This document shows positions 53,802-61,537 of a stretch of DNA of 64,000 bases, piece after piece; position 1 is the first letter of the stretch, and every line of letters starts with the position of its first letter. Under the pieces are notes generated by a model, which saw only the letters and a list, made by a program, of their open reading frames with translations, ran no database searches and had not been told where the DNA came from. Origin of the DNA: a virus (lineage: Duplodnaviria; Caudoviricetes); IMG/VR virus record IMGVR_UViG_3300025012_000029, positions 128,001-192,000 of that record; one strand, 5' to 3'. The translations under genes and the position numbers were made by a program.

Positions 53802-53874
53802 CGTCTCTGGCAGGGTTCGAACCTGCTACCTCATTTTTAGGGGAAATGCGTTCTTCCTTATGAACTACAGAGAC
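53802..53874 (-). tRNA. tRNA-Arg(CCT)
   Basis: CATTT-CCCCTAA-AAATG (C33). Confidence 0.85.
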
Positions 53875-54612: not shown

Positions 54613-54684
54613 TGCTGACAAGAAGATTCGCACTTCTACCTATTACTTACGGGGCAATAATACTTCTAATTATACTATGTCAGC
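54613..54684 (-). tRNA. tRNA-Thr(CGT)
   Basis: ATTGC-CCCGTAA-GTAAT; T loop TGCGAAT. Confidence 0.75.
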
Positions 54685-54688
54685 TCTA

Positions 54689-55063
54689 TTAGAAAAGTAA
54701 ACGAACATTATGATGTCTATCAGAAATCTTAGATAATTCTTTCTTTATCACTTCTTCCCATATGTTGAATTTGTTTGCCAATCCAGAACCTAATTGGGAA
54801 ATTAGCCAAAGCGTATTAGGTGATTTCCTTATTTCAAATTCAAGTTTAGATAATTCTTTTTCAAATACTTTTCTGTATTCTTCTGGTTTATAAAAACTAT
54901 CATCGTTGTTATTTGGATATTTCTTTGTGATAAATCCATATGTATTTGGTTCACTTCGAAACATCGCTGCGCCAGCAAAACCTTTTCTTAACCGATTGTC
55001 TCCATATACAAAAATTGTATTAGGGTTTTTTCGAAGGTATTCTTTTGTTATTAACATAACCAC
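54689..55063 (-). CDS. Hypothetical phage protein (A1S_2505-like/macro-like fold suspected)
   Basis: IFVYGDN..G.AGAA and LGSGLA motifs. Confidence 0.55.
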   Translation of the reverse strand: MVMLITKEYLRKNPNTIFVYGDNRLRKGFAGAAMFRSEPNTYGFITKKYPNNNDDSFYKPEEYRKVFEKELSKLEFEIRKSPNTLWLISQLGSGLANKFNIWEEVIKKELSKISDRHHNVRLLF

Positions 55064-55069
55064 TCTCCA

Positions 55070-55145
55070 TGAACACGAAAGGATTCGAACCTTTGCTGTC
55101 CGACTGATTTCTCTCCCGGATGCCGTCCCGCTTGGCTACGTGTCC
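55070..55145 (-). ncRNA. tRNA-like RNA with 12-nt anticodon loop
   Basis: Normal acceptor, D and T arms; TCCGG-GAGAGAAATCAG-TCGGA has no readable anticodon. Confidence 0.6.
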
Positions 55146-55155
55146 AATATTTAAA

Positions 55156-55746
55156 TCAGGTCCATAAATATTTTCTTAATTTTATGAGCTTATCAAGATT
55201 ATCGTCATCTTTTCTCTCAAACTCTTCTTTCTTTTTAGAAAATTCTTCCCATTTGGGATTTTCGAAAAAATGAGAAGTATCCCATATTCTACATCCTGGA
55301 TGTTCTGGAGATTCTTTGAATTTTATCGATAAATCCATGCCATCACAAATATGATGTATTTCATCATACTCTTTTTCTCTGTCTTCTTTCCACCAATGAT
55401 AAAGTTTAAATATTTCCTCATAAACTCTAGTTGCTTCCTCATTGTGTTTCTTTTTATTTTCTGTTGAGTGTTCTTCTTCGCTTAATTCATCAAAACAACC
55501 AATTTGGCGCTTAAGCATACCTAAACCATCTTCTTTTTCAACAAATTCTACAAGACAATTAAAACAAGCATGGAACATTCTCCAATCTTGATCCATCCAT
55601 CCATATCGATATTCTTTGGTTCGAAGGTCTAACATATGATATCGGTTGATGGTGTGACATCTAATCCAATACCAAATATCATGAAAGGGACGCTTAATAT
55701 CCCTTAATGCGTCTAATACAGCATGCTTGATTTTTTGTTTAACCAT
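55156..55746 (-). CDS. Hypothetical protein
   Basis: Start MVKQK with GGAG SD; the longer ORF overlaps tRNA-Val. Confidence 0.7.
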   Translation of the reverse strand: MVKQKIKHAVLDALRDIKRPFHDIWYWIRCHTINRYHMLDLRTKEYRYGWMDQDWRMFHACFNCLVEFVEKEDGLGMLKRQIGCFDELSEEEHSTENKKKHNEEATRVYEEIFKLYHWWKEDREKEYDEIHHICDGMDLSIKFKESPEHPGCRIWDTSHFFENPKWEEFSKKKEEFERKDDDNLDKLIKLRKYLWT

Positions 55747-55793
55747 TAAATTTCTCCATTTTATTATCGTTATTATATTTTCCTCATAAATTA

Positions 55794-55864
55794 TACTGGG
55801 TAGGGGATTTGCACTCCTGCGAAAGGTATGTAACACCTTCATGCTACTTTTACATCAACCCAGT
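55794..55864 (-). tRNA. tRNA-Val(TAC)
   Basis: AAGGT-GTTACAT-ACCTT; T loop TGCAAAT. Confidence 0.75.
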
Positions 55865-56100
55865 CTATTTTTCTTTTTGTTTCTTCCAGAAAATGTGATT
55901 GTTTGACTATGACAATTAGGACACAACAATCGTAGATTTTCCAATCTATTGTCTGTTCGTATTCCATTTGTGTGGTCTAATTGTAAAGTAATTGATTTTC
56001 CATTCCACATCGGTTCCATTTTACATATGTTAACATTTTTCTTCTAAAATATTTTCATCTAATAATCGTTTTCTCAGATTTGTTGACCAAATATACTCAC
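55855..56100 (-). pseudogene. Frameshifted HNH endonuclease between tRNA genes
   Basis: EEKC then +1 shift to NICKMEPMWNGKSITLQLDHTNG..DNRLENLRLLCPNCHSQT; start boundary approximate. Confidence 0.75.
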
Positions 56101-58935: not shown

Positions 58936-58954
58936 AATTCTTTTCCTTTTTAAG

Positions 58955-59032
58955 TGGAGCGCAGGGGAGTCGAACCCCTTTCCGAAAAACTCCATTTGTT
59001 GGATTATCTTTCGTCGAAACCATTAGCGCCCC
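58955..59032 (-). ncRNA. tmRNA tRNA-like domain without mRNA-like domain (78 nt)
   Basis: 5' GGGGCGCTAATGGTTTCGAC, G3-U70, no D stem, short capped P2, T arm AGGGG-TTCGACT-CCCCT, A73. Confidence 0.75.
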
Positions 59033-59440: not shown

Positions 59441-59514
59441 AGGATAGGGAGGGACTTGCGCCCACTAAAATTCGTTTTGCAGACGAATGCCTCGACTACT
59501 TCAGCTTCCTATCC
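59441..59514 (-). tRNA. tRNA-Cys(GCA)
   Basis: TTCGT-CTGCAAA-ACGAA; U73. Confidence 0.85.
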
Positions 59515-61463: not shown

Positions 61464-61537
61464 GTTGTATGATGAGAATTGCACTCACTAACAACAGCTT
61501 CACAGGCTGTCCGCTAACTATTTTGCGTTCATACAAC
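61464..61537 (-). tRNA. tRNA-His(GTG)
   Basis: ACAGC-CTGTGAA-GCTGT; G-1:C73. Confidence 0.88.

Follow-up and report, generated by a model that had tools for sequence, protein, structure and literature searches.

What is left of a tRNA gene when its body is complete and its anticodon loop is not that of a tRNA? The question is raised by a 76-nt gene of a groundwater phage with a Gp23-type capsid gene, found in a stretch of 64,000 nt (bases 128001-192000 of a 201,144-bp IMG/VR record) that we refer to as the window. A preliminary description of this DNA pointed out a tRNA body with a 12-nt loop in place of an anticodon and offered a non-decoding tRNA mimic, a frameshifting tRNA or a precursor needing cleavage and ligation as readings. 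Here we consider the structure of the gene, the fidelity of its sequence, its place among related phages and the other members of its array, and we conclude that the most probable reading is a tRNA gene of a phage array that has been disabled, and not a new kind of RNA.

An Intact tRNA Body With an Altered Loop

The acceptor, D (GCC/GGC) and T arms had been described as textbook, and this is borne out by the reading of the sequence, the Rfam alignment and the predicted fold (Table 1). The gene scores 46.5 bits (E = 9e-07 over the whole window) with the Rfam tRNA family RF00005, for which the gathering score is 29, and this score together with its location in a same-strand array of approximately 30 tRNA genes places the match beyond chance. 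The features of a tRNA cloverleaf are present, namely a 7-bp acceptor, G18 and G19, a UUCRANY T loop, U8 and A14. U8 and A9 follow the 5' strand of the acceptor, A26 lies between the D and anticodon stems and the variable region reads CAGC, with 20 of the 21 stem pairs being standard and the minimum-free-energy fold being the cloverleaf. The GC content of the gene is 55% compared with 34% for the genome. CCA is not encoded, as the bases after A73 are UGGA.

Table 1. Features of the 76-nt gene and its neighborhood (window positions).
Feature	Position	Strand	Sequence, structure or basis
tRNA-shaped gene, 76 nt	55070..55145	-	Rfam RF00005, 46.5 bits; slot shared with L155; reciprocal best covariance-model match
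Acceptor, 5' strand	55139..55145	-	GGACACG, partner 55071-55077; 7 standard pairs including G2.U71
Acceptor, 3' strand, and discriminator A73	55070..55077	-	CGUGUUC + A73; sequence reading
D arm	55122..55136	-	Stem GCC/GGC + A13.C22; G18 G19 in loop; sequence, model alignment
Anticodon arm, 22 nt	55099..55120	-	5-bp stem UCCGG/UCGGA, last pair G.U, closing a 12-nt loop
12-nt loop	55104..55115	-	GAGAGAAAUCAG, where a 7-nt anticodon loop is expected; sequence, same in an independent contig
Five extra bases	55107..55111	-	GAAAU; global alignment with the L155 Val(GAC) loop, single 5-nt gap
T arm	55078..55094	-	AAAGG-UUCGAAU-CCUUU; sequence, model alignment
tRNA-Val(UAC)	55794..55864	-	Sole intact valine tRNA of the phage; Rfam, missed by ARAGORN
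Upstream ORF	55156..55842	-	Stop 10 nt before the 76-nt gene; called product P0001, 196 aa
Downstream ORF, DUF7831	54689..55057	-	ATG 12 nt past the discriminator; GGAGAG before ATG
tRNA-Thr(CGU)	54613..54684	-	Next in the conserved order

In a decoding tRNA the anticodon loop is 7 nt long and carries U33 as well as a purine at position 37; in this gene the loop is the 12 nt GAGAGAAAUCAG. Ten of the 12 bases are purines, the sole U stands at loop position 9 and position 33 is A, which confirms the purine-rich loop without U33 that had first been pointed out. The Rfam tRNA model alignment skips 14 nt at the anticodon loop. The loop is predicted to close upon itself by means of a 2x2 internal loop, two pairs (GA/UC; G-C and A-U) and a GAAA tetraloop, the inner two pairs having predicted probabilities of 0.88-0.92. 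Judged by its sequence, the gene is tRNA-derived and without a working decoder function. The earlier proposal that it is non-decoding is thereby supported, since the 12-nt loop lacks U33 and no removal of five consecutive bases produces one.

Automatic annotation gave two labels to this gene. ARAGORN called tRNA-Ser(AGA), for which a one-base frame shift and a poor anticodon stem were accepted, and with introns allowed it called tRNA-Leu(GAG) with a 5-nt "intron," AUCAG; both labels depend on the setting, are unsupported and were rejected as artefacts. The tRNA-like domain of a mini-tmRNA was likewise rejected, as Rfam matches the gene to the tRNA family only and its wobble pair is G2.U71, position 3-70 being A-U, not G3.U70. 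A likeness of the 12-nt loop to the sarcin-ricin loop or a k-turn, considered by eye, was set aside because the closing pair and the orientation of the G.A pairs do not fit.

Fidelity of the Sequence

The public runs that contain DNA of this phage are groundwater metagenomes. In one of them (X5), positions 54946-55549 are covered by a 604-nt contig that agrees with the window in every letter and has no gaps; this run belongs to a study other than the likely source study, its contig depth is 4 and, coming from groundwater like the source, it represents one near-identical strain only. The preliminary description had allowed for an indel error that hides a 7-nt loop, and the contig, identical across the gene, gives no sign of one. 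That the gene is an assembly or sequencing artefact in a normal tRNA gene, a suspicion which a metagenomic source assembly and the low depth in the second study could raise, is therefore highly improbable given 604 identical nucleotides in an independent contig of another study and the fact that the loss of any five bases still yields no normal loop.

The Slot of the Gene in Related Phages

A 219,615-bp contig, L155, was found through a homolog of the upstream ORF and has the same gene order as the window. The order common to both is Gln(CUG), Val(UAC), ORF, X, DUF7831, Thr(CGU), 220-aa ORF, Thr(GGU), Arg(CCU), Phe and peptidase C13. Slot X holds the 12-nt-loop gene in the window and an ordinary 71-nt tRNA-Val(GAC) with the loop AUGACAU in L155 (L155:10613-10683), where ORF203 precedes it and DUF7831 follows; the proteins on either side share 55% and 70% identity with those of the window, the latter figure being that of DUF7831 and the L155 protein P0010. 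The gene thus stands in the Val(GAC) position of the shared order. The upstream ORF has four homologs on long contigs (P0002-P0005, 51-57% identical). Within the region 55746-55864, the longest reading of this ORF overlaps tRNA-Val(UAC) by 49 nt, but as the catalogued product has 196 aa, its true start is probably at 55746.

The shared position was compared with sequence similarity using two covariance models, one built from the 76-nt gene and one from the L155 Val(GAC). Over 102,911 bases of related loci the first model ranked the L155 Val(GAC) highest (46.8 bits; next 41.1), and over the phage's own array the second ranked the 76-nt gene highest (46.6 bits), ahead of Val(UAC) with 45.9 and the others with at most 35.3. 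The two are reciprocal best matches, although by small margins, and the second model gives the Ala and Met tRNAs of L155 48.1 and 47.5 bits, about equal to the score of the 76-nt gene. In a global alignment, 45 of 71 positions are identical and a single 5-nt gap falls in the loop, where GAGA, the unmatched GAAAU and CAG stand against AUGA-CAU. A contiguous anticodon G34 A35 C36 is absent, GA and C being split by five bases in this best alignment. The placement of GAAAU is not unique, as AUCAG or other stretches equal in length would serve and ARAGORN -i takes out AUCAG. MAFFT set the 5-nt gap at the 5' end, and the model-based alignment was preferred; it gives an identity of 41/64 over the body and of 28/38 over the acceptor, variable region and T arm, both the best values among the nine tRNAs compared. 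Other orthologous tRNA pairs of the window and L155 are 63-80% identical, and an identity of 63% is near the level of unrelated tRNAs. Since the sequence similarity is weak, the case for descent lies mainly in position.

It is position, then, that decides the origin. As the gene occupies the same slot as the L155 Val(GAC), the simplest reading is a valine tRNA that an expansion of 5 nt inside the anticodon has disabled, with replacement of the slot gene by recombination instead of descent being possible on the same sequences. Between the two genes there are seven two-sided compensatory pair changes, and all stems still pair; by a reading of the pair table by eye, four of the seven are unique to the 76-nt gene in comparison with three relatives. 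These changes may all be older than the expansion of the loop, in which case they are no proof of later selection.

Among the relatives examined, Val(GAC) is found in the slot only in L155. In L165 and L167, reached through DUF7831 (71-73% identical), the tRNA immediately 5' of DUF7831 is also a valine tRNA, with the anticodon UAC, and scores of 66.5 and 62.6 bits with the L155-derived model place it in the same lineage as the L155 Val(GAC). Both of these genes (L165:2862-2932 and L167:482-552) look chimeric: the D and anticodon arms in L167 match the Val(UAC) of the window, and the acceptor and T arms in L165 and L167 match the gene of the Val(GAC) slot. Recombination between the two Val genes with loss of the intervening ORF would explain such chimeras.

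Genes in this region are tightly packed. In L155 the TAA stop of the preceding ORF touches G1 of Val(GAC), the DUF7831 ATG lies 3 nt past A73 and no Shine-Dalgarno sequence lies outside the tRNA, and in the window Thr(CGU) begins 4 nt after one ORF and ends 1 nt before the next. This spacing suggests tRNA-punctuated processing and near-leaderless messages in the clade. As tRNA genes abut ORFs in this way, a tRNA shape may be needed for cutting the transcript.

The tRNA Array and Valine Decoding

The tRNA genes form a single minus-strand array at 53.2-63.7 kb of the window. Three of its members, Val(UAC) at 55794-55864, Cys(GCA) at 59441-59514 and His(GUG) at 61464-61536, are missed by ARAGORN and found by Rfam. 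With these three added, the array covers all amino acids but Trp, for which L158 and L163 have Trp(CCA). We found no second Val(GAC) in this phage. Its valine codons are GUU in 55% and GUC in 9% of cases. L158, L161 and L163 carry only Val(UAC) for valine and no Val(GAC), from which it follows that Val(GAC) is dispensable in the clade; a Val(GAC) would be useful here by codon usage, yet the clade evidently manages without one.

Two other members of the array have an unusual anticodon loop. Thr(CGU) at 54613-54684 (loop CCCGUAA) and Arg(CCU) at 53802-53874 (loop CCCCUAA) carry C33, and both lie at most 1.4 kb from the 12-nt-loop gene. Every relative examined has U33 at these genes, with three relatives for Thr(CGU) and four for Arg(CCU) (L155:11056-11128 and L155:11861-11935, and the same genes in L161, L163, and L165). 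C33 in two neighboring tRNAs may point to unusual pressure on the anticodon loops of this lineage.

The array also contains a mini-tmRNA match at 58952-59032, which overlaps an HNH_5 ORF. An 80-nt element at L165:212-291, 5' of an HNH_5 gene, is a weak match of the model built from the 76-nt gene (17.5 bits); by eye it resembles the mini-tmRNA and it is probably the ortholog of that RNA. Upstream of the array, at a distance of 1.2 kb, is an RtcB gene, and the array itself contains a weak cREC-like match. Between Gln(CUG) and Val(UAC), a 54-aa ORF (55855-56019) has an HNH core only (PF13392, PF01844), and in L155 the gene immediately upstream of Gln(CUG) codes for a 136-aa HNH_3 protein; the 54-aa ORF is probably a decayed homing-endonuclease gene.

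Searches for Similar RNAs

The preliminary description had pointed to a search for homologs. No look-alike sharing the 12-nt loop was found in the collections searched, and the same slot of L155 holds an ordinary tRNA-Val(GAC). A blastn search with the locus returned no match among 50,697 phage records, and one with the tRNA array returned generic tRNA matches only. Exact and degenerate patterns drawn from the 5' half, the anticodon arm, the loop together with the T loop and a Val-type 3' half had no match in IMG/VR, where the 16-mer of the D arm was matched in protein-coding DNA only. Two metagenome scans and one scan of GTDB species-representative genomes, all of which looked for this D arm followed, ahead of the T arm, by 3-7 additional bases, did not yield the 12-nt loop; what they matched were tRNA-Gln genes whose variable loops are long and some other unusual cases. 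The D arm of the 76-nt gene (GCCA-AGCGGGA-CGGC) itself resembles that of typical bacterial tRNA-Gln genes among the metagenome matches (GCCA-AGCGGTA-AGGC) and is unlike those of all Val genes of the relatives, which could reflect convergence or a recombined segment.

The covariance model built from the gene was also applied to two sets of records. One set was traced by the major capsid protein and consists of five IMG/VR contigs, Microcystis phage Mel-JY01 and three uncultured huge phages; the other consists of two huge phages traced by the flanking proteins. The model had no match in these records or none above 42 bits, and the matches that were inspected are ordinary tRNAs. Eight loci around RtcB relatives have no comparable tRNA arrays, and the DUF7831 homologs P0009, P0012, P0013, P0015 and P0018 stand in other contexts with no upstream tRNA slot. 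In the related arrays themselves, the 12-nt loop is absent from all other tRNA genes found by ARAGORN or by the model. As there is no look-alike in the collections searched or in the related arrays, a one-off lesion is favored over a conserved RNA family. Promoter and terminator scans did no better than shuffles. An antisense target of the loop was sought throughout the phage genome, with no exact match except the gene's own complement and none with up to one mismatch on the minus-sense strand; two one-mismatch sites lie on the strand of the gene's complement.

A Probable Recently Disabled Valine tRNA

Overall, we consider it the best explanation, with a probability of roughly 60%, that the gene is a recently disabled descendant of tRNA-Val(GAC) with no trans function of its own. 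The phage lineage would have inherited a tRNA-Val(GAC) in a fixed slot of the array, and the anticodon loop would then have grown from 7 to 12 nt by the insertion of five bases between A35 and C36, as placed by the alignment, with U33 changing to A. An RNA with such a loop would have no U-turn and would not present an anticodon. The main identity elements for ValRS in Escherichia coli are A35, C36, and A73. The 76-nt gene has A73 and its A35-C36 is disrupted, so the adjacent A35-C36, the main signal for ValRS, would have been lost. As ValRS reads mainly A35 and C36, charging of the RNA with valine is doubtful on this sequence. Valine codons would be left to the neighboring tRNA-Val(UAC), as they are in the three relatives without Val(GAC). 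We infer that the gene is transcribed with its array neighbors and that RNase P and 3' processing enzymes then excise the RNA, because the acceptor, T and D arms are intact and the gene lies in the array on its neighbors' strand. Retention of its shape might then serve only to mark a processing site between two closely spaced genes.

Several observations agree with such a history. The gene is the only one of its kind in the collections searched, conservation of its new part is lacking and relatives show it to be expendable, and tRNA pseudogenes are known from the arrays of jumbo phages (PMC5852040). Against it stands the state of the body, which shows no decay and keeps its full 76 nt, whereas the relatives without Val(GAC) deleted the gene outright. 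This state of the body, with its compensatory changes and high GC content, fits continued selection on the shape no less than a recent lesion.

Alternative Explanations

A tentative alternative, which we regard as possible although unlikely, is that the tRNA shape has been retained for a non-decoding job. With a short rod and GAAA tetraloop where its anticodon was, the RNA could be a decoy that engages host tRNA-cutting nucleases or factors that bind tRNA bodies, such as repair and sensing factors, while staying out of translation, or it could serve as an RNase P or 3'-end processing signal between the flanking messages. Intact stems with compensatory changes, a high GC content in an AT-rich genome and the predicted inner hairpin, with pair probabilities of about 0.9, speak for this reading. 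The company that the gene keeps points in the same direction: the mini-tmRNA is another tRNA-shaped non-decoder in the same array, RtcB and a cREC-like protein flank the array or sit in it, C33 is present in Thr(CGU) and Arg(CCU) where relatives have U33, and ORFs abut tRNA genes at the distances given above for L155. However, the collections searched hold no second loop or rod of this kind by which conservation or covariation of the new part would be seen, and the loop has no antisense partner in the phage genome. A processing role, moreover, needs no change in the loop and would account for the keeping of the gene but not for its alteration.

The precursor of the preliminary description would be a tRNA in which two cuts in the loop drop five bases and the phage RtcB re-joins the ends, giving for example GAGACAG with the anticodon GAC. 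The presence of an RtcB gene near the array would suit this, as would the fact that removal of GAAAU recreates GAC and A37 as in the relative's Val(GAC). Each removal of five consecutive bases nevertheless leaves A33, and 5 nt are too short for a bulge-helix-bulge or group I intron, neither of which has its features here; a sensitive Rfam scan found no intron family, and there are only five extra nucleotides. The position of the "intron" also varies with the criterion applied (GAAAU or AUCAG), and we know of no splicing endonuclease for such a site. We therefore find the precursor unsupported and rate it as improbable.

A frameshifting tRNA, the remaining proposal, would be a decoder whose expanded loop lets it read codons of over three bases or change the reading frame, and the expanded loop itself is all that speaks for it. 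Known frameshift suppressors have 8-9-nt loops and keep U33, whereas this loop has 12 nt, lacks U33 and is predicted to be self-paired. This proposal is thus unsupported as well, and we consider it very improbable and less likely than a precursor that is cut and rejoined.

Comparison With Known Systems

The 76-nt gene resembles the non-decoding tRNA-derived genes of large phage tRNA arrays in that it also sits in such an array. It differs from them in that the lesion is confined to the anticodon loop, the cloverleaf is otherwise flawless and an intact counterpart, Val(GAC), has been identified by gene order. A loop of more than 7 nt is shared with engineered and frameshift-suppressor tRNAs. 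In those tRNAs the loop is 8-9 nt long, U33 is retained and the anticodon is stacked, whereas the loop considered here has 12 nt, A33, and pairs with itself by prediction.

Related work reportedly deals with the evasion of PARIS and retrons by phage tRNAs. Substitutions in the anticodon loops of phage tRNAs have been proposed as an escape from host anticodon nucleases (van den Berg et al., 2023, PMC10264068). As in those tRNAs, the change in the 76-nt gene is concentrated in the anticodon loop, and its neighbors carry C33, which by analogy fits the proposed evasion. However, the tRNAs of that proposal keep a 7-nt loop and decoding, in contrast to the 12 nt and the absence of decoding here.

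In YrlA-type bacterial Y RNAs, a tRNA-like module of acceptor, T and D arms is combined with a helix in place of the anticodon arm (Chen et al., 2014, PMC4201824). The 76-nt gene has a tRNA-like module with a helix at the anticodon arm as well. Nonetheless, YrlA has a long Ro60-binding helix and a linked rsr (TROVE) gene, whereas the extension here consists of two pairs and a tetraloop. With an arm of only 22 nt and no TROVE gene (PF05731) in the 201-kb phage genome, assignment to the YrlA-type Y RNAs was rejected.

Implications

If the gene is a disabled valine tRNA, the finding is mainly a correction to annotation, as the labels Ser(AGA) and Leu(GAG), both of them wrong, would overstate what the phage seems able to decode. 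It would also be a snapshot of how a member of a phage tRNA array is lost, by a loop lesion with an intact body here and by outright deletion in relatives. Should the shape be under selection instead, the gene would offer a simple example from nature of how a tRNA becomes an RNA that does not decode, and this in a phage already equipped with a mini-tmRNA. Such a retained role would then belong to a wider remodeling of anticodon loops in this lineage, of which C33 in two neighboring tRNAs would be a part.
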